Origin: Squalus acanthias
Lineage: Eukaryota
Direction of reading: 5' to 3'
NCBI GenBank assembly: GCA_030390025.1
Contig: CM059431.1
Span: 116,996,001-117,060,000 of the forward strand
DNA: 64,000 bases
The position numbers were made by a program, and so were the translations under genes. The notes beneath the pieces are model-generated. The model saw nothing but the letters and a program-made list of their open reading frames with translations. It was not told the DNA's origin and did not search any database. This document shows, one piece after another, positions 1 through 30,167 of this stretch. How positions within the stretch are numbered: position 1 is the stretch's first letter; the number at the start of each line of letters is the position of its first letter.

Positions 1-225
1 CACTGGCGCAAGAACTGCAGGAACCCTTGGAAGGAGTCCAGGGATAAAAATCCCGCAGTCCGATCCCAGGCGCATGTCTCTGATAGGGGAGCTGGTGTGC
101 CTATCCATCCCGATGCGATCGAATCAATGTTGGGAGCCATGCGCACCCTCATGATTTCGCAGGGAAGGGTGGCAGTCGCTACCGGCCCCGCATATGCCGC
201 AGCCCCGTCCAACAGTACCCAATGA
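1..225 (+). CDS. gag: Gag C-terminus (end of zinc knuckle), 5'-partial
   Basis: Frame 1 reads HWRKNC (H-X4-C end of a CCHC knuckle) and stays open to TGA at 223-225, in frame with pol. Confidence 0.75.
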   Translation, partial: HWRKNCRNPWKESRDKNPAVRSQAHVSDRGAGVPIHPDAIESMLGAMRTLMISQGRVAVATGPAYAAAPSNSTQ

Positions 226-3200
226 GTAGAACCCGCACAGTCCGTCTACCTGTGTCCGCTCAGCTATGATGCGTGGAAGCGACCCCTGGTGGAGATGGAG
301 GCAGAGAAGCAGAAGGGTAGTTATTTGTTGGACACGGGAGCTTCATGCACCGTGATTCATACGGATAGCCGCTTTGACTCACCGCTATCTACCAAGGTCC
401 CATACACATTAGCGGGGTTTACGGGAAAAGAGCAGGCTGGCGCGTTCTCCATTCCGCTCTCCATTCATTTAGGAGCACTCCACATCACGTGGAAGTGCAT
501 ACTGATGAAATGGCAAGAGGGGGGTGGGAGAGGCATCCTCGGATCAGATCTCCTATCGGAGCACGGGATCCTCGTGGACCTTAGGAATCACTGTCTCTGG
601 GGAGCTAAGGGTGGAAAAGGCAAGGTAGTGGCAATCCCGGGGAAGGAAGGTAAAGGGGCCCTGTGTACCATGAAGTCATCCGGAGGCTACGACCTCGGGC
701 TTATGGTCGCGGATATCCCAACGGACATGCAGACGTACGTGTCAGATAATATGCACGCGTTTGCAACCCACAAACACGATTGTGGGAGGGTTACCGGGTT
801 TGAGGTCAGCGTAAACGGGGACACCATGACCCGGCCCCAAAAGCAGTATAACTTCCCCAAAGAAGCAGAACCCGACATGGAGACAGCAATGTCCTCATTG
901 GTGCAGCAGGGCGTGTTGAGGCCAATAGCCACACACGTGAACTCCCCATTATGGCCGGTGAGAATGCCGGATAATTCGTGGAGGGCCACGGTGGACTACA
1001 GAGTCCTTAACAGTAACATTCCCGCCTGCGCGCCCACGGTAGCAGCAGTTGCTGACCTAATAGGGAGTATCCCAGCGTCCGCGACCACGTTCATGGTGCT
1101 GGATATCTCAAACGGTTTTTGGTCCATCCTGCTGCGGCGAGAGGACCAGTACAAGTTTGCCTTTACTTTTAAAGGACAACAGTACACATGGAACTGTTTG
1201 CCACAGGGTTTCCACAACAGCCCCAGTATTTTCCATCAGTGTATGGCAGGAAGTTTAAAGGAGTTTAGTCAGCCCAATCAGATAGTGCAGTACGTGGATG
1301 ATTTGCTCCTGTTCACGGACTCAAGGGAGGAGCATGGACCACTGCTAGCCGAGTTATTGGAGCTGCTAGCGAGAAAGGGTTTTAAAGTAAACCCTAAGAA
1401 AGCACGCATCGGTCAGCAGGAAGTAAAATTCCTGGGTCTGACCATTCGCGCTGGGGAAAGAGCCATAGATAAGGCTAGGAGGGAGTCGGTGCAGGAGTTA
1501 CCGATTCCCAACACGATAACGGGTGTGAGGTCCTTTCTGGGACTGACCGGTTACTGTCGAGACTTCATCGAGGTCTATGCGGCCACAGCAGCTCCGCTGC
1601 TCCGACTGCTCCATAAGGGAGTGGAGTGGTCTTGGGACGAGGGTTGCCAGGCAGCATTCGAGAAGTTAAAAAGGGATTTGCAGACCGCGCCAGCTTTAGG
1701 GGCCATAGATGGGGGGAAGGAGTTTTTCCTGGAGGTAGCTGCCAGCGGAGACAGCTTGAGCGGCGTGCTGCTCCAAGAGCGTCACGGCAAGCTGAGGCCG
1801 GTTGTCTATTCGACCAGGGTGTTAACGGATGTGGAGAGGAGTTTTACCAACTGCGAAAGGCATCTTTTTGCCACGCATTGGGCTGTGAAAAGATCAGCGC
1901 TCTTCACAGGGCTCTCTCCCATCACTCTCCTCACCCATCACACACCAACTAAGATGCTTCTAGATGGGAGGATTAAGGATGGGACCGTAAGCAGCGCTCG
2001 CATTGCGCGCTGGACCCTTCTCCTTTCCCAGATGGATCTTAGAGTTAAAGGTCTTTGCGAGCCCAGGCTTGCGGCCAACTTGGTATACCCCGGAACAGCC
2101 CACCGGTGTTCGGTAGAAGGGGTGTGGGAGGTCAACATAGGTTTGATGGCCGGGATACATCCCACAGGTCGCGAGCTTTATGTTGATGGTTGCAGCACAG
2201 TGTCCGCTGGCGAACGACTCACAGGGTGTGGAGTTTATGACCCTGCGGCAAACCTTGCCCTGGCGATTAAACTCCCCAGCACCATGAGCGCGCAGCAGGC
2301 TGAGCTGTCTGCGGTGGCGTACGTAGTGAACCACCCAGAGATCTTCCCAACCCCATACACGATTTTTTCGGACAGTATGGTTACGTGCAATTCGTGTACG
2401 GAATACCTGGCCATTTGGTCCCGCCGTGGTTACACCTCCGCGGACGGGCGACCTTTAACGGTGAAGCCCTTGCTGGAAAAGATCCTAGCAGCAGTGGGGG
2501 AGGAAGGGGAGATTTTCATCCATAAGATGAAAGCTCACTCCTCCACAGAGCCCCGTGGGGAGGGCAACCAGCAGGCGGATGCACTAGCCAGGGAGGGTGC
2601 CCGTAATGGCATTTTCTGGGACCCCTATGGACCCGGACCCGTGGCAGCGATCCAAGGCAGGGAAGGGAATCCCGGGAACACCAGGGTAGCACTGCCTCTA
2701 GACCTTAAGACCGTCCAGAACCAGGATCCCGCCCTAAAAGCAGTTCTCAGAACGATTACTGAGGGCAAGCAGGTAGAGGGCCCGTACAGTACGGCAACCC
2801 TCTCCGTTAAAGAAGGCATGCTGTTCCGCGAGGAACAGTGGGTTGTGCCGCAGCAGCACAGGAGGGAATTCCTCCAGTTGGGTCATGAGCGGCCGGGGGC
2901 AGGGCACCCCGGGCCCGAGGTTACCTGGTAATGGGTAGAGCAGGCGGGATGGTGGCCGGGACTCAGGGAGCAGATCCGCGAGTTCTGTGCAAACTGTCTC
3001 GTGTGCGCTGCAAACAACCCAGACCCCCAGAAAAGGAAAGTGCACATGGGGCACATCAGGAGGGTGGAGGGACCTTGGCCGTCGATACAGATCGATTACA
3101 TAGGGCCCCTGCCCACCACCCAGGGAGGCTACAAATACTGCCTCGTCTTGATGGATGTGTTTTCCAAATGGGTAGAAGCCTTCCCCTGTAGAACAGCTAC

Positions 3201-3579
3201 GGCACTGGGTACTGCTAAGATCTTGGTCCGGGAAGTGTTCTCGCGGTGGGGACTCCCCCGTTTCGTGGAGTCAGACCAAGGGAGTCATTTCACCGGCCAG
3301 GTGATGCAGAACACCCTCATGCTTTTGGGCATTGAAGGGAAGTGGCACGTAGCGCACAATCCCCAGTCATCCAGGATTGTTGAACGCATGAACCGGACCC
3401 TCAAGGAGAAGCTGAGGAAAGAGAGTATGAACTCGCCCCAAAAATGGGCGGAGGTTCTGCCTCTAGTCCTCATGGGAATCCGGGCCAGCCAGTCGAAGAG
3501 TACGGGGTATTCCCCGTACGAGGTGATGACTGGGAGAATCATGCAAACCCCCACCCATGTACTAGCCCCGGTGCTCACT
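226..3579 (+). pseudogene. pol: Pol part 1: aspartic protease, RT, degenerate RNase H (tether), RNase H, integrase zinc finger and catalytic core
   Basis: Protease LLDTGAS/ILGSDLL. RT LPQGFHNSP and YVDD (1291-1302). Tether FFLEVAAS..GVLLQ..RPVVYS. RNase H YVDG..SAQQAEL..FSDS..KAHS..GNQQADALA. Integrase HHCC and IDYIGP/SDQGSHF/VERMNRTLK. In-frame TAA at 2929-2931, after which the same frame continues (WVEQAGWWPGL..FCANCLVC). Confidence 0.95.
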
Positions 3580-6026
3580 TGTAAGGGGGTTCGCATGGCT
3601 CTGTGTTTAGCCTGGGTGCTAGTGCGGGGTTAGGCCTTGTTGCCTGTTCTGGTCTCCAGCCAGCCTGGTAGCACTAGACACCTGTGAGTGGTTCGACCCA
3701 CTCGCCCTTACGGTTCTGACACTGGACTTAGGTGCGAGAGCAATAATGCACAGAAAACTCAGGTAGACTCGGTTGAATAGTACGAAATGGAAAATCTTTA
3801 TTGCATATTGTTCAAGATTACGAAATACATGTCATAAGCACAGATTAATGACAGTACAAGCTTACATTCATTTAGGAAACTAGGTTTAGGGAAACGAGGA
3901 GCACACGACACATCGTAAAAGGGGACACACATTATAATTATCCTTAAAACAAAAACCCTCCCCTATCAATACCTGTCCTAATCTAGATCTGTAGGATTGA
4001 GGCTCATGCTCACCACTCGTGATAACTCGAAGAATTCCTAAACGCTGCTCGGATGTTTTCGCCACAGCACCTGAATATTCACGTGTTGATCAGTGTTCTC
4101 TGTACCCCACTTGTTTACTCGCTTTGCTCCGGCTAGCAGGCTGGACCATCTACTGTCATGAAGATCTGTGTTGACCTCGGAACTCTGATAAAACTCAAAG
4201 AAGAGTCTTCCTGTGCCCGACACCAGTTAGCCGGTAGAATTCAAAGAAGAGTCTTTCTGGATCGACACCAGTTCGATAAAATTCGAAGAAAAGTCTTCCT
4301 GCGTCAGTTCGTGCAGTAACCTATAGAGTTCAAAAATGGTCTATATATTTTCGGGCGCGGTCGGGGTTTACTGACCGCGGCGGCACATGCAGTCTTCTTC
4401 TTCTTCTTCTTGTCTTGTTTCATCTCGTCGGGCCTTCGTGTCCCTACACCGTCTACCGACCCTCGGGATGGTGTACCCGCTTACCGGCCTTCGCAGCCCA
4501 GCTCTTCACAGATCTTCGCGGCAAGCCACGAGGTTGACTCCTGGCAGATCAGCGGACCAAGAGCTCAGTAGGCCGCAAACGAGAGCCAGGGGTCGAATCA
4601 AGAGAGAGATGGACGTTTGTTTACTACAGTTATAGTACTGTAATTCTTTATCTCCCGCCCAATCTTAATGTTCATCTTTTGTCATGTTTTGGCGCTCAAA
4701 CTTCTTGTATGGGGTGGTACTTGTCGTTAATGGGTTTCGGTGATACTTGTAACTGTCTGAGTACCCGTTAATATTTCTCCCCTTGTGGAACCGGCTAGGA
4801 GTCTCCCTGGAGGGGTTTTGGGGGCCTCCGAATTCTTGCTGTGAGTACCCGCGAACGGCTCTCTCATCGTAGAGCCGTGGGGAATTTGCGTATCAATGTC
4901 TTTGGATGGGCCCCTTGATTGCCCAGTACAATAGCTCTCATTTGTACATGGAAAACCCGATTCCAGCACTTATATTCCTTGCTTGGTTGTTAAAAATGCA
5001 AAACAATCTCGTCTTGTCTTATCTCAATATGCTGAGTCCTGTCCGATCTTGCTGAAATGTGTATTGAAACGCCATCTTGTCTGCCTACTGAAAGTCTAGA
5101 ACCTTCTGCCACGAGGCGTGGCGGCCATTTTACAGGCTGCTTGTGTCCGTTTTGAAACCTGACAGCATTTTGCTGAAATAAAGCTGTTTTTACGAAACTG
5201 TATGGGGGAAAAATTCACCTGCTTGCGCCTCCCGTTAGCGCCTTAAGAGGGCGCTAATGGGGCGTAAAGCAGCTAACGCCCGGGCGCAGCGCCGCCCACG
5301 CCTCCCGAAAAATTTAGTGGGAGGTTAGCGGCGGCGGCAGCCGGTAGCGCCCTGTGGCGCTGCGCCGCCGGCGATGACGTCATCGCCGTGCGCAGCGCCC
5401 CGCTCGCGCCCCGGCCGTGATCTTCAGTCGCGCCCCCTGATTTACCGCCAGACGCTATGTCCGACGGGTTCAGGGGGGCGTACGTGCGGCCGGGGCGGCG
5501 ATATTTAAAGGGGAGGTGGCAGGCGGCCATTTTTGTTGCTGGCCGCCTGCCAGCACCTGCCCCCGTTGCTGTCCCCGGCCCCCGTGAAGCCCCCCCACCG
5601 TGAAGTGCCGGCTGCGCTCCAAGAGCCCGGCACTTCTCTTGAGTGCCGGGCTCTTTTGCCGGCACTCCCGATCCCCGGGGGCCCAGCTGGGCCCCGGTTC
5701 GCGCTGCGCAAGGCCCCTCCCCTTTAAGAAGGGGAGGAAGGCCTGCAATACCGCGGCGCGACGTGCCGCAGCGCATGGCGCTGCGGCACGTAGCGCCAGG
5801 ATATTCACTCGCAGCGCCCCAAGAGGGATGCGGGGTGCTTCCAGTTGCGCCCCGCTTCCCTCTTGGGGCGCAACCACTGAAGTTCCGGCGCGGGGCCGCT
5901 AATTTTTTCGGGGCGCTAAAAGTCACGCCCCGGCGAGGTTAGCGCCCCAAATGGGGCGCGACTCAATTTTTACCCCTATGTCTCTATCTCGTTATTTCGA
6001 AATCGCGATAATTTGCGAATTCTACA
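3580..6026 (-). mobile_element. Solo LTR of a related ERV family, inserted antisense into integrase (contains a MITE)
   Basis: TG..CA termini and 4-bp TSD CACT (3576-3579/6027-6030). The reverse complement aligns by eye with the 10193-11895 LTR at both ends and internally. Removing it restores the frame PVLT-EVQLQEVKW. Confidence 0.92.
5204..5976. mobile_element. GC-rich non-autonomous Harbinger-type MITE, copy 1
   Basis: TIRs gggggaaaaatt / aatttttacccc and 3-bp TSD TAT; near-identical to 13425-14167. Confidence 0.88.
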
Positions 6027-6030
6027 CACT

Positions 6031-7167
6031 GAGGTACAGCTCCAAGAGGTGAAATGGGACAAGTTTTTCCAGACCCTCTTGGAGCGCCTGAAGCAGGTTT
6101 ACGAGCAGGCGGTTGGGAACATGGGAAGACAGCATCAGGGCAATCGCCTGTTGCTGGAACCCCGTAAGAAGCAGGAGTGGGAAGTCGGAGATCAGTTCAT
6201 GGTTAGGAACTATACCAGAGTAGGGAGTTTGGAACCACTGTATATGGAACCCTACAGTATTGTAGATAAGGCGAGTCCCATGGTGTACGCCGTAAAGGTA
6301 CCTCGGCGCACGAAATGGTTCCACATTAACCAGTGCAAGTTGTATAAGCCGGGTGCACAGGGGCCAATCACAGGGGCCAAAACTGCGAGTGGGGACTCAC
6401 AGCCCAGGATAGGACAGCAGGGCACACAGACCGGTAAAGCAGCCTGCTTGAGGGGAGAGGACATTCTAGAAAAGTGTAGGATCTTTTCTTGGTGTTGGGA
6501 TTCAGATGAGGAAGAGCTCGAGGAGCTCGACCAAGGTAGTGACCCGATCGGAGAGGTGCTGGGGTCAGAGGACGAAAGTTTCGTCCTCGACTCAAGCTCA
6601 GGGGAGATAGGGGCTGCGAGTGGAGATCCACACAGGGTGGAATCGAAAACTGCAGATCCCGAGCCCAGGGGGGCGGAGCTAGGGGAGACGGAGCCAGCGG
6701 CTGTGGTAGGACCACAGGCCGTGACGGTGGAAGTCTCGGTACCCGGTCCGTCGGCCCTGGAAGTCTTGCCCTTGGGGGAGGTAGGGATTGCGAGTGGAGG
6801 ACCACATACTGGGCCAAGTAGGGTGGAACCAGAAACTGCAAATCCCGAGTTCAGGGGGGCGGAGCCAGGGGAGACGGAGCCAGCGGCTGTGGTAGGACCA
6901 CAGGCCGTGACGGTGGAAGTCTTGGTTCCTGGTCCGTCGGCCCTGGAAATCTTGCCCAATGTAGCCCTCCGTAGGTCAAGTCGGACACCCCAGCCCAGGA
7001 AGCCGTGGTCAAGTCCCCCGTACGCCCCCAGGCGTAAGTTCAAGGTCAAGGCAGCCCAGGGAGATCCCAGTCCCAGCGAAGCGGTGACAGGCTGCAGCAG
7101 ATCAAAGGAAGGGGTCAGTGCCCTCCCACCACTGGGAAAAGCTCATGGCAGCCTTCGCAGAATTTAG
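6031..7167 (+). pseudogene. pol: Pol part 2: integrase C-terminal (GPY/F-like) domain plus long acidic/proline-rich tail
   Basis: VGDQFMVR..LEPLYMEPYSIV..YAV..WFHINQCKLY, then a low-complexity tail with an internal duplication (6601-6774 / 6775-6957) and an LRRSSR motif. Confidence 0.88.
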
Positions 7168-7444
7168 GTAGGCCGCCCTGGGAACGGGCGGCGCTGTACA
7201 GTTTAAGTTTAGGATAAGTTTATAAGTTTAAGTTTAAGTTTTGTAAGTTTGGTAAGTTTGTAGTTTAATTTTAAAAGTAAATGGTAAAATGATGGGAGTT
7301 AGAGATAGGAATAGTTAAAGTCTATCCAGCATACATGTCGTTATACGTGAGACGAGGTCAAGGGACCCGCTCACCCTTCACAAAAGCCAGAGACTCTTGG
7401 GAGGCTGGCTACATCATTTTATCTGATCACAGGAACCAGGAAAG

Positions 7445-9796
7445 ATGGAAAGGATTCTGATAGTGCTCGCAACGATCGGATATGGATTGGCCTATCGGGG
7501 CCTCACCAAGGATGTCGTTGTGTTCGGTTGCTCCGGGGACACGGGCCCCATGGCGACGGATGGGACCGGGGAGCGAAAGGCTGAGGAGACCGCCACGTAT
7601 TTCCACAAGGGAAGGTGGCCGGGATGGCTGGGAACTAATTCAACGGAATACTCCAACGCATCCGGATTTGCCTACAAAGAGACCTCTTTACTGTGCCCCA
7701 GAGTGAGGATCATTGCACCCAGAATCAGCGTCACCGTCGGCAAAAGGATTTGTTTGACATGCAATGGGAAGGTCCCATTGAGCCGATGGTGGTGGTTACG
7801 GAAATTAAGCAAGACTATGAGAAATTTCTCGGTTGAGTGGGAGCGATTGGGTAACAACACCCATCGGACAATTACGGGGACTAACGGACAATTGAAAGTC
7901 TGTTGGGACAAATGGTGGGAACCGGATGAGGGAATATATGTTTGTATGTGGGGATCGAAGTACGCTTGCCCCAAGGGTATATCCATATTCTTCGTACACC
8001 AGTGGCAGGATAACGGAAAAGGGATGAGGTGGGATGTCAGCACCAAGGGGTGCGGAGCTCCATTCTCCCCGATCCCGGTAAACGCCACTGAACTCATCAC
8101 GCGCCCACGCAAGGCTCCGCCCACGATTCCGGTGGTTTTGGCTCAGAAGGAAGGGTGCCCTAAAACCACTAAGGGGCCCGGGAATGGTTTGATACTGGTC
8201 CCAACAGACCAGATACTATTTCAAGGGGTACATTACGCGGTGGCTTCGGTGATTCTAAATCTCACCGAGGTGCGTTTACCAGAGTGGTGCCCCAAAGAGA
8301 CGGAACAATTGTACCAGGTCCTGTTGACAAACATGTTCAGACAATTCTACGAGTTTGATTTTGCGGAGATTGACAAAACAAGCTTGTACACCACACCACA
8401 CGAAGTTTTGGGTCAGGTGGGGAGACAAAGAAGGGGTATTGTGAACGATATGTTCACTGCCTTTAATACAGGAACATCTGTGGTCAACGCTCTAGACAAC
8501 GTGGAGCCGCAGAACCAGATCAATGGTTTAAAAACACAATTAAAAAGCATCCTCACAAGCGAAAAAAAGGTAGTAGGGTCTGAGTTACATGAGGACCAGG
8601 CCATGACACTACACTTAAAGGAGATTATAGCAGAGCTGGAGAAGCATGCGAGACCGGTAAATGCCCTGATCAGGGAAGATCGGAACGCATCTGATCAAGC
8701 TTCGCAGAACGAGGTGTGCGTACTATACGGGGCGTGGTTACTGGGCGAGGGCCGCAGTAATTTGGAGGATTTAAAACAAGGTTTGGTCCCGTCCTGGATA
8801 AGTAACAAACACCTGCAGGCGCTCCACCCTTTTGAGAACGCATTAAGCCCGTGCCAGCTCAGGCTAGCCTCAGAGGCATAACCAAGCCCCGTGGACTGCG
8901 GACGGTCAAATCATACCATCATGGGTATAGTACTACGTATGCCGGTGTTGGGCGACACGGCAAAGCCCGCCCCGGTGTATCGGGTGGAGAACATTGGTGT
9001 CATTCAGGGGGGAGCCCACATTCGCTACGCAGCGGTCCCACCTTACGTCATCCGCTGGGAGCAAACGATGACAGGTACCGACCTATCGGGTTGTCGTGGC
9101 CGGGGAGCACACATAATCCTGTGTCCCCAGCACTTGAATGCCTTTTTAACACCACAATGTGGGTTCAGAACAGCTGACGCCAAGCCCATGAATTGCACCA
9201 TGGAGGCAATGACACAAGATCATGTGCCTCCGCAGGTGGCATACATAGGGGGTGGAACATATTGCGTTACCACTGCAGCGCAACACTACCAGCATGGAAA
9301 CCACAGCCGGTGTCCGGTGAGTGACAGCAGTTTCTGTTTTAAACCCAGGGCTGAAGTTCAAGTGGCACAACAGCGAATTGTCCTGATCCCTGAACCATCC
9401 ACTGTTCACCTTACAGTAAAAGAGAATTTCACCGACTTGCAGCGATTCGTCGCGCATTTCGGATACATCATTCCCCCTCTCGCTGAACACCTCACCAAGC
9501 TTTTGAAAGCCGTCGCGGTATCACAAAAACATTTTTACACCCTGGAACAGAAAACAGTAGAAATAGGGACAGAAATTTTGGACATAGTAATCCCACCGTG
9601 GTGGGATCTGTTCACCAATATTGAAGTTCCTCCATGGATCAGGATAGCCTCCCACATTTTGGTTGTGTGCCAAGTTATAATTGTAGTGTACCTATTGGTC
9701 GTGCACTGCAAGAGAGGCAAACGCCTCACAAAGCAGGAGAACACAGGGGAGTGGAGAGAACGTTACGTGCGCGTGAACGAGGAAAGCGCCGCGTAA
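7445..9796 (+). pseudogene. env: Envelope glycoprotein (class I fusogen, F-protein-like) with N-terminal Ig-like domain; one in-frame stop
   Basis: Signal peptide MERILIVLATIGYGLA, N-glycosylation sequons, furin site RQRR (8423-8434), fusion-peptide/heptad region, Cys-rich region, and TM segment ILVVCQVIIVVYLLVV followed by KRGKR. ORFs 7445-8881 and 8891-9796 are in the same frame, separated by TAA at 8879-8881. Confidence 0.9.
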
Positions 9797-10192
9797 ACGG
9801 CCAGGATGACGCCGCTCCATTTTACCATGTGTGTTTTGTAATTGATTGTTTAGTTATGTAGATGTGTAACTAAGTTTGGAACTTTGTATTTTAAAAGAGT
9901 TGTTTTGATTATTTTTTTCTTGTATAATAAAAACATGCATATACAGTTGGTGTGAGAGGCATCGGCCTGTTGCACCTGGAAGGCGTATACGCAATGTAAG
10001 TTCAAAGGCAATGCTGCCTACGGTTTGTCCAAGTTTAAACAATGTAATTTTCCCTGGGAAATGAGGACGGCATGGAGGCCATAGATAGTTTAAGTTAAGG
10101 GAATGTTTGGATGTGGAGAATCGGGATAATTTTGCTCACCACCACTTTTAATTGATACGATAAGCGGAGTTATTCGCATCAACAGGAGGGAC

Positions 10193-11895
10193 TGTAAAGT
10201 TTCGCAATTATCGCGATTCGAAATAACGAGAGAGAAGCAGATTCGTTTGATCAGTTTATTTAAACGAAATGCTGTCATGATTAAAAAGGACACAGAAGCC
10301 TGTAAAATGGCCACCGCGCATCGTGGCAGAAGCTTCCAGAATTACAGTGGGCAGACAAGATGGCGTTCGAATAAACATTTCAATATAAGACGGGATCATA
10401 CTCGATAAGCACTGATAAAGACAGGATGCAACCTGTTTGCATTTGTGACAATAGCAAAATATATGAGTGCTGGAATCGTTTTCCATGCACAAGTAAGGAC
10501 CATTGTACTGGGCAATCGAAGGCCCATCCAGACACATCAATACACAAATACCCCCATGGCTCTGCAATGAGAGAGCCATTCTCGGGTGATTAAACAAGTA
10601 TTCGGGGGCCCCCAAAACCCAGCCAGGGAGGCTCCTAGCCGGTTCAACAATGAGGAAAACATTAACGGGTAGTTGGCCAGTTTCAGGTGCTACCGAATCC
10701 CGTTAAAGACAAGAATCGCCCCATGCTGGGAGTTTTGAGCGCCAATATTTCACAAAGGACAAACATTAAGATTTGGGCGGGAGATAGGGGAACACAGCAC
10801 TATAACTATAGTGAACAAATGTCCATCGGTCTCTTATCTCTGCTGACTCTTGACTCGGGCTGAACTCTTATTCTCCTATTCTGATCCTCGGGTATCGCTC
10901 TGCTGGACGAGCAGCCTTCTGTGTTTCTCTGGACTCTGTTGACTCTGGACTTTTGCTGCACTGGACGGTTATTCGAATGTTGGGTGGAGCTCAATCGGAA
11001 CGAGCCGCCTCGACAAAGGCAAGTGACCGGGTGCACCATCCCGAGAGTCGGTAAACGGTGTCTGGACCCGAAGGCCCAACAAGACAAGACGAAATGACAA
11101 GAAAAGAAGAAGAATCCACGTGCCACTGCGGTCAGTAAACCCCGACCGCACCCGAAAATATAAGACCCACTGCTTGAACTCTGCAGGTTATTGCACGAAC
11201 CGGTCAAAGACTCTTCTTTGAATTCTACCGACAACTGGTGTCGATACAGGAAGACTTTTCTTTGAGTTCTACAGCCGGGCCCGAGTTCTGTCGAGTTCTT
11301 CATGACAACGGGGAGCCCGGCCTGCTTGCCGCAGCAGCGAAGATAAACAAGTGGGGTACAGAGACCCCTCCAAACACGTGACAGTCAGGCGCTGCAGCGA
11401 AACGAGCCGAGTGCCTCACTTTAAAATTCTCCGAAGTATCACAAGTGGTGAGCATGTTTCCTGATCCTACAAATCTAGATGTAGTGTAGGTATTGATAGG
11501 GGAGGGTGGATTTATTAAGGATAAAGTATAATGTGTTCCCCTTTTTACGATGTGCCGTGCGTTCTTCATTACCATAGACCAAGCTTTATGAATGTATGTA
11601 TACTTGTACTCTCGTTAATTTGCGCCTATGACATGTACTTCATGATTTTGGACGCTATGCAATAAAGATTTCCATTTCGTACTATTCAACCAGGTCTATT
11701 TGAGTTTTTCTCTGCATTACTGCTCTCGCACCTAAGTCCAGTGTTAGAACCGTAAGGGCGAGTGGGTCGAACCACTCACAGGTGCTTATTGCAACAAGGC
11801 TGGCCGGAGACCAGAGCAAGCAATAGCATTAGGCAACGAAGGCCTAACCTCGCACCAGCACTGTCTGTGATACAAGCACGCCGAAACCCCTTACA
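10193..11895 (+). repeat. 3' LTR (1703 bp)
   Basis: Follows the polypurine tract; inverted termini TGTAA...TTACA; AATAAA at 11661-11666; homologous to the solo LTR at 3580-6026. Confidence 0.92.
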
Positions 11896-13390
11896 GATGG
11901 CACGTTCGAAGACGCTGTATTTAAGGGGGCCATGTCCCCTTTGGCTTTCACTTACATTTTGCTGCTCCTGAGTGCTGGTGGTTGCATACCTGACAGCACC
12001 GAGAACAAAGGCTGCTCCTCTTTCGACGATGACTCCCTCCATGTTCTTGTGGATGGAGTAAGAGGACGCAAGGAGGTGCTGTTCCCTTCTGATGGAAGGA
12101 GGAAGCCTCCTCAGCACACCAAGGCAGCCTGGCTGCAAATAGCTGAGGAGGTCAGTGCAAGGTCTATCTTTACACTCACCTGGTCCATTGTAGGAAGAGA
12201 TTCAATGATCTCCTGCGTTCAGCAAAAGTGAGTATAACAGCACACTTACCTTCATTCTGCTGTGCCTGTCTTCACATCCCCATCACTCTGTATTGCCAGC
12301 CCTACTCCTGCACAATCTAACTCACCCCAACATCCCTTGCACCGTCACCCTTCCCTCTCTCCCTCTGTACAGAATAACTTCCCCATCTTACTATGCACCC
12401 CTCACACCCACTCTCAATGTTATGCAATGACAACAACTAACAACTCACAAGGAACTTGGTAATGGGAACCCACTCCATCGTATTCTCCCTCTAAACATCT
12501 ATCCTATCCATTCTTTACACTCATTCCATCACTCTCGCTAAAACTGCACTTCTGTCCCTCATTGCAGGAAAAGAGAGCCTACAATAAGAGGGAGCCGGAG
12601 AGAACAGGAGGAGGACCACCATCCGTGGCACAGCTCACCCACGCTGAGGAGGCAGCTCTGGACATTGTTGGAGGTGCTGAGGAGCTTGAAGTGGGGGACG
12701 GAGAGACGGGCTCAGTCGAACAACCTGGTGACAGAATTATTTTCCAACCATCTGATTTGGCATTCATGAGTGACTCATATGGGATCTGGTGTTCATAGAA
12801 ATTGAATGCTCATCATGTGCACAATGCAACCTACAAATCACATGTCTAAATCAGGTCTTTAATCTCCCACAGAACCATCAAGAGCCCCCCTCTCTATTGC
12901 CCAGGAGGAAGAGCAGGAGGACTCCTCAGAGGATCCTCCAGCCTCTGAGGGAGTAGCGTCAGCAGAAATGAGTGCACCCTGCACCAGCACAGAGACGCAC
13001 ACCTCGGTGGGTCCAATGCGAGATAGAGTGGTGTTGTCACCTGGTGTCTCAGAGCTCACAAGTGAGCTAGAGCAGATGATGGAGACAGTGACAGCAGTGG
13101 AGAGTCCTCATCGGCGGCTGTAAGATGCTCCTAGCTTAGCTGAGCTACATGCAGACGCTGAGCCTGAGGGGCCATCCAGGAAAAGAGCAGTGCTGGAGAT
13201 TCAGGAGCAAGTGCAGGAGGCTCTGACTGGTTTAGCAACCACGGTGACTGCGAGTGTGCAAAGAATGGAGGAGTCCATCTAAAATATGAGCAGCGCCATG
13301 GTGCAGGCTCTGGCAAATGTAGGTCCCGCCATGGAAAGGATGGCAACCTCCAAGGCGGACATAAATCGCCAGACTCAGGAGAACATGATA
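11896..13390 (+). mobile_element. PIF/Harbinger fragment with degenerate 3-exon Myb/SANT-like gene; host of the ERV insertion
   Basis: FDDDSLHVLVDGVRGRKEVLFP..AWLQIAEEVS..RFNDL followed by GTGAGT; exon 2 EKRAYNKRE..RTGGGPP; frameshifts; homologous to 16079-17939. Confidence 0.8.
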
Positions 13391-13424
13391 ACACTTCTAA
13401 ATAGTTCGAGTCATAGAGTCATAT

Positions 13425-14167
13425 GGGGGAAAAATTCAGCTGCTTGCGCCTCCCGTTAGCGCCTTAAGAGGGCGCTAATGGGGCGTAAAGCAGCTAATGC
13501 CCGGGTGCAGCGCCGCCCACGCCTCCCGAAAAATTTAGTGGGAGGTTAGCGGCGGCGGCAGCCGGTAGCGCCCTGTGGCGCTGCGCCGCCGGCGATGACG
13601 TCATCGCCATGCGCAGCACCCCGCTCGCGCCCCGACCGTGATCTTCAGTCGCGCCCCCTGATTTACCGCCAGACGCTATGTCCGACGGGTTCAGGGAGGC
13701 GTACGTGCGGCCAGGGCGGCGATATTTAAAGGGGAGGTGGCAGGCGGCCATTTTTGTTGCTGGCCGCCTGCCAGCACCTGCCCCCGTTGCTGTCCCCGGC
13801 CCCCGTGAAGCCCCCCCACCGTGAAGTGCCGGCTGCGCTCCAAGAGCCCGGCACTTCTCTTGAGTGCCGGGCTCTTTTGCCGGCACTCCCGATCCCTGGG
13901 GGCCCAGCTGGGCCCCGGTTCGCGCTGCGCAGGGTCCCTCCCCTTTAAGAAGGGGAGGAAGGCCTGCAATACCGCGGCACGTAGCGCCAGGATATTCCCT
14001 CGCAGCGCCCCAAGAGGGATGCGGGGTGCTTCCAGTGGCGCCCCGCTTCCCTCTTGGGGCGCAACCACTGAAGTTCCGGCGCGGGGCCGCTAATTTTTTC
14101 GGGGCGCTAAAAGTCGCGCCCCGGCGAGGTTAGCGCCCCAAATGGGGCGCGACTCAATTTTTACCCC
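13425..14167. mobile_element. GC-rich MITE copy 2, in the 3' tail of a CR1 LINE
   Basis: Same TIRs and near-identical interior to 5204-5976, apart from one ~30-bp indel. Confidence 0.88.
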
Positions 14168-16078: not shown

Positions 16079-17939
16079 ATGGAGTCACACTGACAGAAGG
16101 CTGCGTCCAGATTCCCTGATGCCTCCCTCGAAGTGCTGGTCCAGGGAATCAGAGCATGCAGGGAGTTCCTATACCCTGCAGATAGGCGCAAAAGAGCAGC
16201 CAGAGACACCAAGAGGACATGGCTGGAGATCGCGGAGGAGGTCAGCAGTAGGGATGTCATAAGGTGGTCCTGGATCCAGTGCTGGAAAAGATTTAATGAT
16301 CTCATGAGGTCAGGAAAGGTGAGTGTAATGCCAAAATCAACTACATCCTGATGTGCGTGTCACCCCAACCCCATCACTCTGTCTTCCCAAGCATACTCCT
16401 GCACCTCAATCCTCACACCAACCTACCTTGCAAGGTGCACCCATCCCTTACTCTCTATCTGCCTACTCACATCCCCATCTATCTAACCACCACTGACACT
16501 CACCCTCATCCTAATGCAATCATAGGAAGTAACACCACAGAAGGAGGTCATTTGGCAATGTCACTCCACTCCCTCATAGTCACTCTCTACAGATGTAGCC
16601 TATCCATTCCTGACACTCATTCCACACTCTCACTCAAAGTTCTCTTCTTTCCCTCCTTGCAGGAGAGAGCCCAAAACAACAGGGAGAGGCAATGAACCGG
16701 AGGTGGCCCTCCAATTTTCACCAACTTGACTCCAGCAGAGGAGGAGGCCCTTGAAATCACTGGAGTTGCAGAGGTGCTGGCGGTGGGAGATGGAGAGAGG
16801 CAGACCTCCCAGCAGCCTGGTGACAGAATTAAATCTCATACTGCCACATGGCATACAACATCATGGTGACTTGATCATGGTCAGCAGCCAGTCAAATGCC
16901 ATCATGTGCATAATGGTAACATTACATATTCTTATCATAAGACTTCTAATTCATCTCTTTACTCTCCCACAGGTCCATCAAGTGTCACCCCCTACTGTTT
17001 AGCCAGAGGAGGAAGATGACTCCTCAGCGGAAGCTCCAATTTCTGCGGGTGCACCGTCACCAGACCCAAGTGCACCCAGCACCAGCGCAGATATGCACAC
17101 CTCGGTGGGTACAGCGAGTCATAATGTAGTGTTGTCACCTGGTGTCTCACAGATCACAAGTGAGCAAGAGCAGATGGTGGAGACAGGGACACCAGTGGAG
17201 AGTCCTTGCCGGAGGGTGCAGGACGCTCCCAGCTCTGCTCATGTTGCATGCAGATGCTGAACCTCGGGGGCCATTGAGAAAGAGGGTGATCTTGGAGGAG
17301 CAGCAACAAATGCGCGAGGCTCTGGCAGCTTTTGCAGCCGCGATGTGTGCAAATGTACAGAGAATGGAGGAGTCTATCTCCAACATGAGCACCACCATAT
17401 CACAGGCGATGGCGACTGTAGGCTCTTCCATGGAAAGGATGGCCACCTGCATGGAGCAGCTAATGCGCCAGTCAAATGAAAACATGCTTGCTGTGAACAA
17501 CAAATTGCAGACTCTTATTGAACTCATCTCTAGAAGGGATAGCAACATCGATTTGGGTGTTCATCGCCCCACAGATGTGCAGCAAGATGCTCTCCAGCTC
17601 CTTGCTAGCAGGGAAGTGCGGGTGGCTCATGAGAGGGATGATGGTGAGAGGGGACATGGAAGTGGGGGCTCCGCTCAAAGCATTCCCACTTCTCCCCCGT
17701 TGCCTCCCCCTCAGTCAGAGTCCCACATGCTTCCTCAGATCTCGATGGCCGAGTCTGCACAGTTGCAGAAGGAGCAGTCTTTGGCGGGGCCAACACAGGC
17801 TCCAAAACCCAGAGGGCGTCCGCCAAAAGTTTCTAAGCAGTCAGAGCAGGGAAATGAGCAGCCTGTCTCTACCACTGCTGAAGCCACAGAGGGTGCACCT
17901 CGTAGAAGCATTCAGAAAAGAAAAATGACAGAATCATAG
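16079..17939 (+). pseudogene. Harbinger Myb/SANT-like DNA-binding protein (exons ~16079-16318, 16663-16819, 16973-17939)
   Basis: RFPDASLEVLVQGI..TWLEIAEEVSS..QCWKRFNDLMRSGK; GT/AG boundaries; coiled-coil-like C-terminus; stops present. Confidence 0.82.
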
Positions 17940-22724: not shown

Positions 22725-24586
22725 CGGTGGAATTTTCCAGGGGGTCAGCTGGCGCAATCGGTGGCGGGTCGGGTGGGGAGGTGTTTTCTTTACAGCGGGT
22801 CAGGAACCCGATGTCAACCCGCTGCCACGTGCCATTCCCAATGTCGGTTCTGTCAGTGCTGAGCAGACCTGACAGGCAGTGGCAGGAACCCAATTAAGTT
22901 CATTATTGCTTTGTTGACAGATAATTAACAGGCTTTTTTAACTTACCTTTTCACTTTAACTTCACGGTCACGGGAACCGCACTGTTCAGGGACCACGGCT
23001 GTCAGCCTGAGGCGAGAGTTCAGTGGCCATTGCTCCAGCTGATTCCTTGACAGCTTCAAATGTACAGTAGAAACTCCCACCTGACAGAAGTTCACTTTCC
23101 TCAACCACAAGCTGTTTCTCAGTCCATTTCCAGCACAGATTCTGCAGGCTTTCCATTTTCCACTCTCCATCCAGTATTACAACAGTGACTACACTCCAAA
23201 AGTACTTCATTGCGTTCGGTGGTCGTGAAAAGCGCTATATAAATGCAAGTATTTCTTTCTTTCTTTCTTTACCTCTTTGCAAGAACTCTCTCACCATTGA
23301 CAGAATGCTTCTATTATCTGTACTTCACCTGCCATCTATTCCATCAACATGGATGCCCTTAATACTATCTCACCTTGGTCCTCAGAATCTGACCACGATC
23401 AGCCCCAACGCCAGCAGTACCAGGCACACCAGCAGCACCAACAACAACACCAACCTTCTCTGCAGTCAACTGATGCTGCACAGCAGAGAGGGCATCAGCA
23501 TCCGAGCACATTGCTGCCTGGGAGGTCAGGGATGGCCTCACCATGGCCAGATTTACTTCACTTGACCCTGTACACCCTGGCTGCCACATGATGCACCAGG
23601 TTGGCACCACCCCACACCAACACCCTAAAGCATCACTACAATGCCCAAGCTATTCCTTTCACACTCACCACCATTGCGGGGGGTACCGTTAAGTCTCACC
23701 ATTCACATCAACTCACTAAGCCACTTCCGAAGGTGCACACAAATCTGTCCAAGATCAGAAATTGTTGAAAATAAAGGTTTCAATGTTTGACAGCACATTA
23801 ACAGTAACTTTACATGAACATTGGCTAAAACACCCAAGTGGCCTTCTTGTGTGTTGTTAGTTGTTATGATTCCACTAGGATGAGGGTGAGTGTGAGGGGT
23901 GGCTAGTGAGATGGGGATGTGATAATGTAGATAGAGAGAGAGGGATGGGTTAATGTGCAAGGTAAGTTGGTGTGAGTAAGGGTGTGCAGGAGTAGGGTAG
24001 AGAAGGCAGAGTAATGGAGATGTGATGAGAGGCACAGCAGGATGAGGTTGAGTGTGGCTTTGTACTAACGTTTCGTGATCTAATGAGATAATTGAAAGGT
24101 TTGCACCACTGCACCCAGGTCCTCCTGACGACATCCCTGCTTGTGCCGTCCTGTGCAATGTGTAACCAGGCTGCGTTGGTCTCCTGGGGAGATCTCTTCC
24201 GCCCATGGGAAGGGAAGAGGACCTCCCTGCGTGCTCTGACTTCCTCCATAAACATAAGGAGTCATGGGAGAGCCTGGGTGCAGCCCTGCACCTCTGTGCA
24301 GTGATTGTCAGTGTTTGCAGCACTTCGATGCTGTAGAACACTGACAGCACAAATGTCAAAATAAAGTTGGCCATGGTCCCTTTAAAGAAACCGGCTGATG
24401 ATGCGTCATGAAATGACATCACCAGACCCGCTTCCTCTAATTGGGCGGGAAACACGCTGGGCGGGCTTAACAAGTCGCATCAATGAAAAGTCATTTCACA
24501 GAGCAGGCTGGAGCCAACAGCGGGGTCAGGATCCGCCACCGACGTCGCCCGCCCTGGACCCTCCGAGGTGAGTAAAATCGCGACCC
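22725..24586. mobile_element. Non-autonomous Harbinger derivative (family C, copy 1)
   Basis: Myb exon 1 on - (EEVRARREVLFP..AWLHIAQ..QWCKPFN) and nuclease 5' end on +; homologous to 27597-30167, 43559-48720 and 53097-54821. Confidence 0.75.
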
Positions 24587-27596: not shown

Positions 27597-30167
27597 GGGC
27601 TGGATTTTTCCAAACTCGGCGGCTCCGGGGTGGCCGACGTCCGTGGCGTGTGGGGACCCTGCATCTGTCTCGATCCCAGCCTCCAACAAGATTTTCCGTT
27701 GATGGGGCTTGTTAAGCCCGCCCTGTGAGGTTCCCGGTCAATTAATAGGAATCAGGGGGAAAAATTGTGTCGCGCCTCATTTGGGGCGCTAACTTCGATG
27801 GGGCATTACTTTTAGCGCCCCGGAAAAATTAGCACCCCCGTGGCCGAAATTCATCAGTAGCGCCCCAAGAGGGAAGCAGGGTGCTACTGGAAGCCTCCCT
27901 CTTGGGGCGCTGCGAGTGAATATCACGGCACGTCGCGCCGCAGTACTGCAGGCCTTCCTCCCCTTCTTAAAGGGGCGGGGCCGAGCGCAGCGCAACCCGG
28001 GGCCCAGCTGGGCCACCAGGGATCGGAGAGCCGGCAAAAGAGCCCGGCACTCAAGAGAAGTACCGGGCTCACAGAGCGCAGCTGGCACTCTGCGGGGGGT
28101 GCTGAAGAGGAGGCCGGGGACGGCAGAGGGGGAAGGTGCTGGCAGGCGGCCAGTAACAAAAATGGCCGCCCGGCACCTTCCCTTTAATTAGCGCCGCCCC
28201 GGCCGCAGGTTGGCCCCCCGACCCAGTCGGACATAGCGTCCGGCGGTAAGTCAGGGGGCGCGACCGAAAATCGCAGCCGGGGCGTGAGCGGGGTGCTGCG
28301 CACGACGATGACATCATCGCTTGTAGCGCAGCGCCGCGGGGCGCTAACGGTTACCGCCGCCGCTAACCTCCCACTGAATTTTGCGGGAGGCGTTGGTGGC
28401 GCCGCGCCCAGGCGCTAGTTGCTTTGCACCCCGTTAGCGCCCTCCGGAGGCGCAAAGCAACCGAATTTTTGGGCCCAGGTCTGATGACGTCATTTTATGA
28501 CTCGTCATCAGCCCGTTTCCTTAAAGGGACCATGTCCACAATTATTTTGGCAGTTGTGCTGTCAGTGTTCTACAGCATTGAGGTGCTGCAAACAATGACA
28601 AGCACTGCACAAAGGTGCAGGTCTGCATCCAGGCTCCCCCATGGCTCCCTCCATATACTTATGCAGGGAATCACAGCACACAGGGAGGTTCTCTTCCCTT
28701 CCAATGGGCGGAACAGACCTCCCCAGGACACCAACGCAGCCTGGTTGCACATTGCACAGGAGGACACAAGCAGGGATGTGTTCAGGAGGACCAGGCTGCA
28801 GTGGTGCAAACCTTTCAATGAAACGTTACTGCAAAGCCAAACTCAACCTCATCCTGCTGTGCCACTCATCACATCCCCATCACTCTGCCTTCCCTACCCT
28901 AATCCTGCACATCCTTACTCACACCAACTTACCTTGCACCTCTACCTATCCCTCGCTATCTACATTATCACTTCCCCATCTCCCTAGCCGCCCCTCACAC
29001 TCACCCTCATCCTAGTCCAATCATACCAACTAACAACACACAATGGTAGGCACTTGCGTCTTTTAGCCAATGTTCAAGTAAAGTTTCAGTTAATCTGTTG
29101 TCAAATATTCAAATCTTTATTTTCAACACTTTGCCTTCTTGGACAGATCTTTGTGCACCTTTGGAAGTGGCTTAGTGAGTTGCAGTGAATGGTTAGACAT
29201 AACGGTACCGCCACCCCCCACCCCCCCCGCACCCCCCCGCCCCACCCCCTGCCAATGGTGATGAGTGTGAAAGGAATGTCTTGGGCAATGTCGGGATGCT
29301 TTATGGTGTTGGTGTGGGGTGGTGCCAAACTGGTGTATCATGTGGCAGCCAGGGTGTACAGCATCAACGTAAGTATATCTGGCCTCGGTGAGGCCATCCC
29401 TGGCCTCCCGGGAAGCAATGTGGTCGGGTGCTGATGCCCTGTGTCCTGTGCAGCATCAGGTGATTGCGGAGAAAGTTGGTGCTGTTGTTGGTGCTGCTGG
29501 TGTGCCTGGTGATGCTGGTGTGCCTGGTGATGCTGGTGTGCCTGGTGATGTTCATATTTGGGGCTGATTGTCGTGGGATTCTGAGGACCAATGTGAGATT
29601 GTTTCAAGGGCTCTGATGCTGATGGAATAGATGGCAGCTGAAGTTGAGATAGCAGAAGCGAGCTGTCAATGCTGAGAGAGGTTGCTCCAAGAAAGTGACA
29701 CTGGACAGAGAGTTTACTCCAAACACTTCAAACCTTCATAAAGCTGAAAAATGTATCCCAAATCCTGAATGCTCCAGCCTCTAAGTTTGGAAATTGAACA
29801 GCTGTGAAGTGGTAGATTTTATACCACTTTTGCAGCTGTCAACCATTCACAGCAATGCAGAGTCATTGAGAACCCGACACACTTACCTGACGTAATCCCT
29901 GAGCACAGGGAACTTCATAAAAAACCTGGAAAAATCATTAGGACCTGGTAAAATGCTGCTTAAATACCTTTAAGCAGCTTCTTAAGTATCTCAATTGCCT
30001 GACCCGTCGCTTAGTGCCGGGTCTGCAAACCGCAGGCAGAGCCGGCACTTGGGAAATTAACAAGGAGGCGGGTTCAGTGCAGACTTCTGCCCCGCTGTCA
30101 ATCACTGCCATTTTGACAGCGGACCCGCCTCCGGACCCGCTCTCTGAGCGCCGGCAAAACTTAGCCC
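27597..30167. mobile_element. Non-autonomous Harbinger derivative (family C, copy 2) with nested MITE
   Basis: Termini gggctggatttt / aaaacttagccc; Myb exon 1 on + at ~28590-28820. Confidence 0.78.
27755..28476. mobile_element. GC-rich MITE copy 3 (opposite orientation, diverged)
   Basis: Reverse-complement similarity to 5204-5976; interrupts the host motif aggaa..ggtctgatga. Confidence 0.8.

Follow-up and report, generated by a model that had tools for sequence, protein, structure and literature searches.

A stretch of 64,000 nucleotides from Squalus acanthias (GCA_030390025.1, CM059431.1:116,996,001-117,060,000, forward strand; 'the window') carries at positions 1 to 11,895 a defective copy of a large, recently amplified family of cartilaginous-fish endogenous retroviruses, which appears to belong to a deep-branching lineage of canonical Retroviridae with frog and coelacanth members, and which would have used a class Ib (paramyxovirus F-like) Env for entry; that reading is given a probability of roughly 0.8. 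The element is a deep branch on the canonical retrovirus side with an Env predicted to fold like the fusion protein of measles virus and RSV, and the lineage is class III-like and probably lies inside the published clade Huo. Literature searches found no description of this Env, in which, as read from its sequence, an N-terminal module precedes the fusion core.

A first-pass annotation had proposed a near-intact, lokiretrovirus-like provirus from a cartilaginous fish. The provirus and the host were both confirmed, the element displaying LTRs, a tRNA primer binding site, a polypurine tract and gag-pro-pol-env order, and its closest named Env relatives coming from Rhinoraja (76% identity) and Pristiophorus (53-58%); the lokiretroviral assignment and the intactness of the copy were not.

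Organization and composition of the copy

The gag frame closes with a TGA in frame with pol, a codon found at that boundary in 12 of 13 copies examined, and its product is helical towards the N-terminus and has a single CCHC knuckle. Within pol, protease (LLDTGAS at 325) and reverse transcriptase (RT; YVDD at 1291) are followed by the two RNase H domains described initially: a tether with LEVAAS at 1729-1746 (Pol residue 502), inside a Pfam RT_RNaseH/RT_RNaseH_2 domain (E 6e-16 and 7e-19), and then a second RNase H (YVDG 2179, QAEL 2296, SDS 2368, KAHS 2530, NQQAD 2566) ahead of Integrase_H2C2 and rve domains. The extension that ends pol is approximately 270 residues long, acidic and proline-rich, with an internal duplication. 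The two stops counted earlier are present, one being premature in pol (2929-2931) and the other lying in env. The single insertion reported previously is indeed found; it lies in integrase and holds a second repeat as well. An empty-site joint (3575>6027) was recovered for the inserted LTR in two of four runs, and over aligned columns that LTR matches the 5' LTR at 90% and the 3' LTR at 84% identity; for the nested and putatively DNA-transposon-like repeat, the joint 5200>5977 was recovered in all four runs.

Table 1. Features of the element (window coordinates, except those prefixed L009, which lie upstream of the window).
Feature	Position	Strand	Basis or remark
5' LTR	L009:5765-7397		subfamily A
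3' end of gag	1..225	+	frame of 625 codons begins upstream of window (L009:7348-9225)
pol 5' part: protease, RT, tether, RNase H, integrase zinc finger and core	226..3579	+	subfamily A type
Tether (Ty3/gypsy-like RNase H, degenerate and without its first Asp)	1633..2031	+	Pfam PF17919/PF17917, Pol aa 470-602
Second, complete RNase H	2173..2601	+	Pfam PF00075, Pol aa 650-792, E 4.6e-18
Solo LTR in reverse orientation, from a third related subfamily; interrupts integrase, flanked by 4-bp duplication CACT	3580..6026	-	LTR alignment and empty-site joint
GC-rich repeat, ~776 bp, short terminal inverted repeats, nested in inserted LTR	5201..5976	.	94% copy at 13422-14167
pol 3' part: integrase tail, including an SH3-like domain, and the extension	6027..7167	+	subfamily B type, from 6339 at the latest
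env (783 codons; premature stop codon 8879-8881)	7445..9796 (9793 without stop codon)	+	subfamily B type, 153/158 informative sites
Probable Ig V-set-like domain, Env aa ~83-174	7691..7966	+	weak matches and low-confidence model
Predicted class Ib (F-like) fusion core, Env aa ~245-719	8177..9601	+	predicted-fold matches
Furin site RQRR	8423-8434	+	Env aa 327-330
Env transmembrane segment	9644-9703	+	hydrophobicity scan, aa ~734-753
Polypurine tract	10182..10192	+	sequence
3' LTR, 1703 bp, TG...CA	10193..11895	+	subfamily B; 97-98% identical copies elsewhere in genome

The family is large and young: a first look returned 5506 and 6526 candidate copies, and the LTR pairs of seven copies differ by K2P distances of only 0.0025-0.024, all seven being flanked by 4-bp target-site duplications. 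The 5' and 3' LTRs of the window copy are 82% identical and no target-site duplication surrounds them (next to the 5' LTR stands TGCC in place of the expected GATG), so that the copy, with LINE RT sequence on its 5' side and a Myb/SANT repeat on its 3' side, is neither near-intact nor datable by its own LTRs, as had been supposed. Judged by informative sites, it is a hybrid of two subfamilies, A and B: gag is of type A at 63 of 64 sites and the 5' part of pol is 92-100% identical to an A copy in 200-bp bins, and type B is found at 42 of 42 sites between 6339 and 6649 and at 153 of 158 in env. Such a hybrid would have arisen after integration, when a B-type provirus recombined with one of type A that carried pol, with a crossover between ~3400 and 6339. 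An assembly misjoin of two proviruses could also leave unrelated flanks and no duplication, in a genome holding thousands of candidate copies, and none of the contigs compared spans the element; a misjoin is nonetheless improbable, as the switch falls in the short stretch over which A elements and pol-less B elements become homologous again, as expected from ectopic recombination, and the contig carrying the element is 160 Mb long. Conclusions regarding the family hold whether or not the hybrid is a misjoin.

In the proposed replication cycle, LTR-driven RNA would be primed by tRNA-Arg(TCG), which the primer binding site upstream of the window matches; Pol would be made after Gag by readthrough of the in-frame UGA; integrase generates the 4-bp duplications observed at relatives; and pol-less gag-env copies may have spread on the Pol of other copies.

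Placement of the reverse transcriptase

Three RT trees were built, of 119 rows (quick), 78 rows (site-mixture, quick) and 37 rows (LG+G4 with bootstrap), with anchors matched by eye to published alignments (P0023 as SnRV, P0130 as Loki-Str, P0043 near Loki-Aro, P0154 and P0159 near Odin, and L025 near CoEFV-type foamy viruses); their sampling leaves out class II, lentivirus and amphibian lokiretrovirus sequences, and foamy viruses enter it through a single, long-branched genomic family. The query RT grouped with canonical retroviruses, and not with lokiretroviruses as first predicted. In the 37-row tree the canonical clade (foamy, SnRV, ERV-L and class I) received 100/99 support, the query clade with frog and coelacanth Pols 98/96, and lokiretroviruses plus Odin 100/99; SH-aLRT values were 99 and 94 for the canonical and query clades in the 78-row tree, and 99 for the canonical clade in the 119-row tree. 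AU tests rejected the query with lokiretroviruses (p 5e-6) and its clade with lokiretroviruses (3e-47), Odin (5e-37, with two Odin-like rows), gypsy (6e-5) and class I (0.028); sisterhood to foamy viruses (0.147, for one long-branched row), SnRV (0.202) and ERV-L (0.145) was neither rejected nor recovered in the tree. The query RT shares 30-37% identity with 14 loki/Odin rows and 45-53% with 10 frog- and coelacanth-type rows (43.5% with SnRV), and it carries the motif PQG, as opposed to the PFG found in all 24 published lokiretroviral RTs; among the tree rows, PFG occurs in 13 of 14 loki/Odin sequences and in none of the query clade, where 10 of 12 have PQG.

In the RNase H tree that had been suggested as a further check, a loki plus Odin clade (100/100) left the query outside, though near lokiretroviruses. 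Similarly, the integrase tree separated loki plus Odin (100/99) from the query, whose integrase scores close to lokiretroviral integrase and is annotated as loki/NYNRIN-like; the query clade is not monophyletic in either tree, and deeper nodes lack support.

Several other assignments were considered. Odin retrotransposons share the dual RNase H, but have no env and carry PFG (PMC9040795), and the query was rejected as their sister; Metaviridae (Ty3/gypsy, errantivirus) were rejected on the two RNase H domains and the AU result, and class I (gamma/epsilon) elements on theirs, together with the lack of their Env motifs; membership in Spumaretrovirinae is disfavoured by Env, which has no receptor-binding domain (RBD) inserted between its subunits. 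Members of Huo (SnRV, ERV-L, CmiERV lineage I) resemble the query in their deep canonical position and wide aquatic host range, and differ in that the query forms its own supported clade and that an F-like Env is not described for them, as far as excerpts of the two sources extend (PMC6001957, PMC4422223).

An Env of predicted F-like fold with an N-terminal module

As first annotated, Env carries a RQRR site followed by 453 residues that include a transmembrane segment, and contains neither CX6CC nor an ISD-type motif. The further claim that it is F-like rather than gamma-type is borne out by its predicted fold: in Foldseek, human PIV3 F was matched at E 1e-10 and every listed PDB row was an F protein, and in a VIA search ranks 1 to 16 were all F or foamy Env, among them NDV F (Z 10.6) and foamy Env (Z 8.1 and 7.9), although the model has a mean pLDDT of 58.8, TM-scores are 0.2-0.3 with high rmsd, and Z values of 8-10.6 are only modestly above background. 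A profile search of the PDB gave foamy Env TM as best match (E 0.002), and weak fold matches were seen to the Env of the fish epsilonretroviruses WEHV-1 and WDSV. Pfam F (PF00523) matched none of 40 Env-family members, and in a hydrophobicity scan the transmembrane segment passed while a signal peptide and a fusion peptide did not. Since residues 238-653 align to 8RM0 139-849 over 270 residues, the foamy-type RBD insert is missing, and only 83 residues separate the start of the core from the furin site. The gene is under purifying selection, with dN/dS of 0.08-0.11 in eight A-versus-B pairs.

Ahead of the core lie approximately 215 extra residues (aa ~22-238), a separate module that the first-pass annotation had overlooked. 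It probably contains an Ig V-like domain: the V-set motif C...W...DxGxYxC is present (C103/C106, W114-116, DEGIYVC 161-167), seven of nine weak phmmer rows against the PDB were antibody light chains (E 0.55-1.5), one relative (P0271) matches Pfam V-set weakly (E 0.045), and another (P0248) is named 'Ig-like domain-containing' by UniRef; the corresponding model (mean pLDDT 39) gave a best VIA Z of 6.3, under 8, with rmsd 3.2 over 85 residues, and a best Foldseek E of 3.9e-3. By analogy with the S1 module of coronavirus spike, this module most likely would serve attachment. Furin would split Env into an N-subunit (the module plus predicted F2-like strands and helix) and an F1-like C-subunit, and by comparison with F and foamy Env, the cleaved protein would carry out membrane fusion. 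Paramyxovirus and pneumovirus F proteins share the predicted three-domain core, furin cleavage, heptad repeats and transmembrane segment, but are only 9-15% identical, and operate beside a separate attachment protein, whereas the provirus-encoded Env has its own N-terminal module.

Competing histories and the origin of retroviral Env

That the element is a true lokiretrovirus, or a loki/Odin sister and the first in cartilaginous fish, is scarcely credible. Lokiretroviruses share its LTR-gag-pol-env layout, tether and RNase H, F-like Env with an RX(K/R)R site (RXRR in the query), NYNRIN/CGIN1-like integrase annotation and aquatic vertebrate hosts (PMC7947760); in addition, the opening motif of the F core resembles the start of Loki-Xtr Env, a likeness judged by eye only, and the helical N-terminal Gag recalls the lokiretroviral smc/spc7 region, by impression only. 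Lokiretroviruses occurred in none of six chondrichthyan genomes in the original screen, and one here would therefore be new. The label is largely refuted by the RT tree and identities, the AU tests (p 5e-6 or lower), PQG, and RNase H and integrase trees that also keep the query out of the loki clade; further differences are the in-frame gag/pol stop and long N-terminal module (in Loki-Xtr gag and pol form one frame, and such a module is missing), the missing Pfam F match and the chondrichthyan host. The hedge that the element might be a 'neighbour' of that lineage holds only loosely, given that it branches deeply among canonical retroviruses. Nor can dual RNase H with an F-like Env, taken previously as a hallmark, call a lokiretrovirus, because the tether and second RNase H are common to all retroviruses (PMC7947760) and to Odin, and foamy Env is likewise F-like (PMC11468914).

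That the element is foamy-like (clade Tu) and has a reduced Env is very unlikely, even though the best PDB match of the RT is foamy (169 bits versus 158 for MLV-type), both Envs are of class Ib and sisterhood was not rejected by AU. The RT of the genome's foamy-type family is only 34% identical and branches elsewhere, Gag has a CCHC knuckle, which is not known from foamy Gag, and the extra Env module is N-terminal, versus one inserted between subunits (8RM0/8RM1, PMC11468914). Downstream of env, no accessory frame of at least 90 aa that matched a family was noted. A less remote, though still unlikely, history is that of a recombinant, in which a class III-like canonical RT acquired env (and perhaps integrase) from a lokiretrovirus or RNA virus, making the F-like Env a local gain and not ancestral; this history agrees with the RT placement and bears only on that of Env. 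Retroviral domain swaps are common (PMC7947760), integrase and RNase H lie near lokiretroviruses, the minimal core resembles loki Env and differs from RBD-bearing foamy Env, and the top fold matches are negative-strand virus glycoproteins. Conversely, two further families in the genome have related Envs beside non-loki RTs of separate branches: in one, the RT upstream of a 27%-identical Env joins the query clade (99/96), and in the other the RT is sister to P0022 (100/98); the divergence of Env relatives (18-31%) is what long vertical descent would predict; foamy Env is the best profile match in the PDB; and none of 10 named Env matches is from ray-finned fish. The hosts of Env relatives (10 of 50 matches looked up) are sharks, frogs and coelacanth, the same as in the Pol clade, the pairing of Env with Pol in frogs and coelacanth being by host overlap only.

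The canonical placement bears on the origin of retroviral Env. In describing lokiretroviruses, Wang and Han (2021, PMC7947760) listed four scenarios for the origin of Env and excluded none, and a class Ib Env has been considered to set foamy viruses apart from other retroviruses (PMC11468914). With foamy, loki and now the query lineage's Envs all F-like, an ancestral F-type Env is favoured, and class Ib Env may be ancestral to retroviruses. A fuller version, held tentatively and at somewhat less than even odds, is that the query clade comprises the earliest-branching canonical retroviruses, retaining a minimal class Ib Env from the common ancestor with lokiretroviruses; foamy viruses would have gained an internal RBD, and the query lineage interchangeable N-terminal modules (often captured host Ig, for attachment), while fish epsilonretroviruses may keep the core; gamma-, beta- and lentiviruses would have replaced it later by their class Ia Env. 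If true, the choice among the four scenarios would fall to a single F-type origin. Elements of this kind stand in databases as 'NYNRIN-like' or 'Gypsy integrase-like'. They would give retroviruses an example of an F scaffold preceded by an N-terminal module, an arrangement listed for coronavirus spike (PMC11468914). As a third lineage, one that is abundant, sits among canonical retroviruses, has a minimal F core and occurs in sharks, frogs and coelacanth, they make the scenarios for Env origin testable through comparison of Env and RT trees.

Placement by reverse transcriptase

By its reverse transcriptase (RT) the window element is a canonical retrovirus, and at its envelope (Env) it is loki- or foamy-like. 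The closest relative of its Pol (88%) is followed by frog, coelacanth and turtle proteins at 44-51%, which carry the labels NYNRIN-like or Gypsy integrase-like; a second search, begun from an eel protein that matches Loki-Aro, returned about 45 loki-type Pols. The main tree comprised 37 rows picked from 206 RTs (LG+G4; support as bootstrap/SH-aLRT), with anchors identified by eye against published alignments in the accessible supplements of PMC7947760 and PMC9040795: P0023 (SnRV), P0130 (matching Loki-Str), P0154, P0156 and P0159 (matching Odin) and L025, a foamy-type locus of this genome. That tree united loki with Odin (100/99) and the query with the canonical retroviruses (100/99), grouped the query with five Pols from frog, coelacanth and others (98/96), and placed this query clade, together with two turtle-type rows, as a weakly supported sister of all remaining canonical rows (86/58). 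The same picture was obtained in 78-row and 119-row trees (site-mixture, quick searches); none of these trees included RTs of class II, of lentiviruses or of amphibian loki elements.

The first-pass annotation had assigned the element to the lokiretroviruses or a neighbouring lineage. Lokiretrovirus membership is rejected by an AU test of the query with loki (p 5e-6), by an RT motif that reads PQG where 24 of 24 published loki RTs read PFG (accessible supplement of PMC7947760), and by the RT, RNase H and integrase trees, all of which leave the query outside loki; the latter two place it near loki and do not recover the query clade. Phylogenies of RT and RNase H were the check that had been proposed. 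Further AU tests rejected a grouping of the query clade with any of loki (3e-47), with Odin (5e-37), with gypsy (6e-5) or with class I (0.028), and retained foamy (0.147), SnRV (0.202) and ERV-L (0.145) as possible sisters. All ten loci fetched after a loki-query search of the 3.71-Gb genome (51 candidates scored, a stricter first look) belonged to the window element's own family, a result compatible with loki elements elsewhere in that genome; viral contigs scanned with the RT yielded no relative. The RT lineage may well lie inside published data for clade Huo, described in the accessible text of PMC6001957 as including SnRV and class III elements and as found across all vertebrates; SnRV-like ERVs are described from elephant shark in the portion available of PMC4422223.

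The envelope protein

The 783-codon Env carries RQRR at residues 327-330, with 453 residues following and a transmembrane segment at approximately 734-753. A phmmer search of 1.84 billion representatives returned 50 matches; eight of ten looked up were named (Mustelus, Chiloscyllium (two), Pristiophorus, Pelodytes, Xenopus, Mantella and Latimeria), and the closest named relatives were from skate (76%) and sawshark (53-58%), which makes the host a cartilaginous fish. The P0281 cluster of Mantella aurantiaca (16 members), with its many near-identical Env relatives, suggests that this type of Env was recently amplified in that frog too. Four shark-type gene models (P0004, P0005, P0246 and P0268) join parts of this env to host genes, some bearing Niban-like or zinc-finger names and others no name, and are probably annotation chimeras, the alternative being exonisation.

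Pfam matched no family in the window Env, Pfam F matched no relative in a 40-row Env alignment, and phmmer against the PDB returned nothing below E 0.46; the best PDB profile match of that alignment was the foamy Env TM (E 0.002). An AlphaFold2 model of Env (mean pLDDT 58.8; mostly 70-95 over residues 240-300 and 430-650) matched hPIV3 F at E 1e-10, the matches listed being all paramyxo- or pneumovirus F, with TM-scores of 0.2-0.3 and high rmsd. In an unbiased fold search, ranks 1-16 were F or foamy Env, including NDV F at Z 10.6 over 351 aligned residues (rmsd 24.1), RSV F at Z 8.1 over 282 (rmsd 5.7) and foamy prefusion Env at Z 7.9 over 270 (rmsd 5.8). The predicted F core begins near residue 245 and is without the foamy RBD insert. 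The earlier view of an F-like rather than gamma-type Env is borne out by the predicted fold and by a sequence containing neither a CX6CC nor an ISD motif. Weak matches in a viral fold library to the predicted Envs of the walleye epsilonretroviruses WEHV-1 (E 7e-9, rank 18) and WDSV (E 1.4e-6, TM 0.13, rank 32) provide a lead only, that these Envs may belong to the class Ib fusogens; the second-ranked match in that library was A0A384ZVF2, of 928 residues and without a name.

Approximately 215 residues precede the F core, and contain an Ig-like motif at about 83-174. Antibody light chains made up seven of nine weak PDB rows in the Env phmmer search, a separate low-confidence model of this module, whose pLDDT averages 39 and lies at 50-66 across most of the domain, matched V domains with Z up to 6.3, and among the relatives one gave a weak Pfam V-set match and one is 'Ig-like' by UniRef name. 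Zinc fingers contributed by one chimeric gene model dominated a profile search with the N-terminal alignment, which was uninformative. Other relatives carry a different module (P0247, P0259) or none (P0272, P0285). From these models and matches, residues ~83-174 probably adopt an Ig fold; the modular scheme set out in the accessible text of PMC11468914 suggests, by analogy, that the module may serve in attachment.

A hybrid copy and its family

The 3' end of gag opens the window, and pol encodes, by Pfam and sequence, a protease, RT, two RNase H domains, of which the first is Ty3/gypsy-like and the second complete (Pfam E 4.6e-18), and an integrase. The degenerate RNase H, the second RNase H, RQRR, two stops and one insertion were all correctly observed at first pass, and the description of a near-intact provirus is withdrawn for a locus both degraded and hybrid. 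Contigs from other copies bridged the empty site of the integrase insertion in two of four runs and that of its nested repeat in all four. The TGA between gag and pol, found in 12 of 13 copies examined, is thus a family trait and is presumably read through. Gag gave a single weak match to protein P0009 (E 0.004, one comparison); because a zinc knuckle was its sole match in the PDB, the capsid is putatively assigned by position. The Gag N-terminus is long, helical and coiled-coil-like, recalls the loki smc/spc7 region and has no Pfam match. Beyond integrase, the pol frame continues for approximately 270 acidic, proline-rich residues; since pol-less copies retain this stretch, it may have a separate role.

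Features of the element and its surroundings (window positions, or positions in L009, the locus carrying the upstream gag and 5' LTR)
Feature	Position	Detail
5' LTR	L009:5765-7397	then PBS complementary to genomic tRNA-Arg(TCG)
Gag N-terminus	L009:7348-8000
gag/pol TGA	223-225	in frame with pol
LEVAAS	1729-1746	first RNase H
Premature stop, pol	2929-2931	one
Integrase insertion	3580-6026	inverted; LTR of related subfamily, 4-bp duplication, nested 776-bp repeat
Pol extension	6360-7167
Duplication in extension	6601-6771 / 6775-6957	~180 bp
env	7445-9793
Premature stop, env	8879-8881	one
3' LTR	10193-11895
GC-rich repeat	5201-5976, 13422-14167, 27754-28456, 30658-31346	~750 bp; short terminal inverted repeats, internal palindromes
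Myb/SANT-like repeat	11896-13400; near 16097-17486, 23846-24265, 28641-29043, 43880-44300, 54152-54558	3' LTR adjoins one copy
Tandem arrays	58031-58879, 62961-63284, 39777-40159	22-, 54- and 17-bp units

The two LTRs of the window copy are 82% identical (K2P 0.21), and for each of them dozens of the 40 candidates scored match over the full length at 93-98% (lower bounds). A 5' LTR flanked by a GATG duplication had been expected upstream: the LTR is there, but its flank reads TGCC, GATG lying at the 3' side only, and the copy has no target-site duplication. On the 5' side the element abuts a LINE RT broken off at the LTR, and on the 3' side a Myb/SANT-encoding repeat (Pfam match below cut-off) that we take to be Harbinger-like. 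Informative sites distinguishing subfamilies A and B read A at 63 of 64 in gag, B at 42 of 42 across 6339-6649 and B at 153 of 158 in env. The LTRs of one provirus are identical when made by reverse transcription, so the hybrid formed either in the genome or in assembly; ectopic recombination is most simply its genomic origin, with an assembly origin as the alternative. The LTR dating once suggested is unworkable for this copy, whose LTRs belong to different subfamilies.

Relatives with paired LTRs have a 4-bp duplication in seven of seven cases and a K2P of 0.0025-0.024, corresponding to 0.6-5 My at a mammalian rate borrowed from PMC7947760 or 6-54 My at an assumed shark rate borrowed from PMC4422223, each as given in accessible text. 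Among copies fetched, all five B-type and one of two A-type keep gag and env and are without pol; such LTR-gag-env elements are common (six of seven paired copies, L014-L018 and L022), non-autonomous yet envelope-bearing, and their env stays under purifying selection. Between the subfamilies Env is under purifying selection, with dN/dS of 0.08-0.11 for the whole protein, 0.11-0.13 for its N-terminal module and 0.055-0.10 for its F core (eight pairs, Nei-Gojobori). Twenty sequencing runs from eight studies are on record; contigs of two that may be RNA runs extend across the stretch, with neither expression nor splicing evident.

Related families and the origin of the envelope

Further families with related Envs are present in the genome (83 and 66 matches). 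Two of four upstream stretches gave placeable RT pieces (L051 lacked an RT, and the fragments in L052 were all below 100 residues): one joins the query clade (99/96), and the second pairs with P0022 as its sister (100/98) on a separate non-loki branch near the foamy row. Their Envs, linked to these RTs by an assumption from distance and strand, are 27% and 30% identical to that of the window. The loci L043/L049, L045/L050, L040-L047 and L052 represent at least two more ERV families having F-like Envs with differing N-terminal modules, and L024-L029 (49 PF03539 matches) a foamy-type family whose RT resembles coelacanth EFV motifs by eye.

In the accessible text of PMC7947760, lokiretroviruses are defined by RT, carry an F-like Env, were found in none of six chondrichthyan genomes, and are discussed under four scenarios of Env origin; the available parts of PMC9040795 make Odin sister to loki and favour independent Env origins, and those of PMC11468914 place foamy Env in class Ib. 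In the literature searched, which lay outside Repbase/Dfam and subscription journals where the lineage may already be covered, no canonical ERV other than foamy was described with an F-like or Ig-bearing Env. Nor is the present Env described in the accessible portions of PMC12440569, PMC13709493, PMC12287698, PMC12583693, PMC11521997, PMC12456133, PMC9447858 and bioRxiv 2023.10.26.564294. It is this lineage, rather than the degraded hybrid locus, that carries the value of the finding, in that the origin of the retroviral Env becomes testable.
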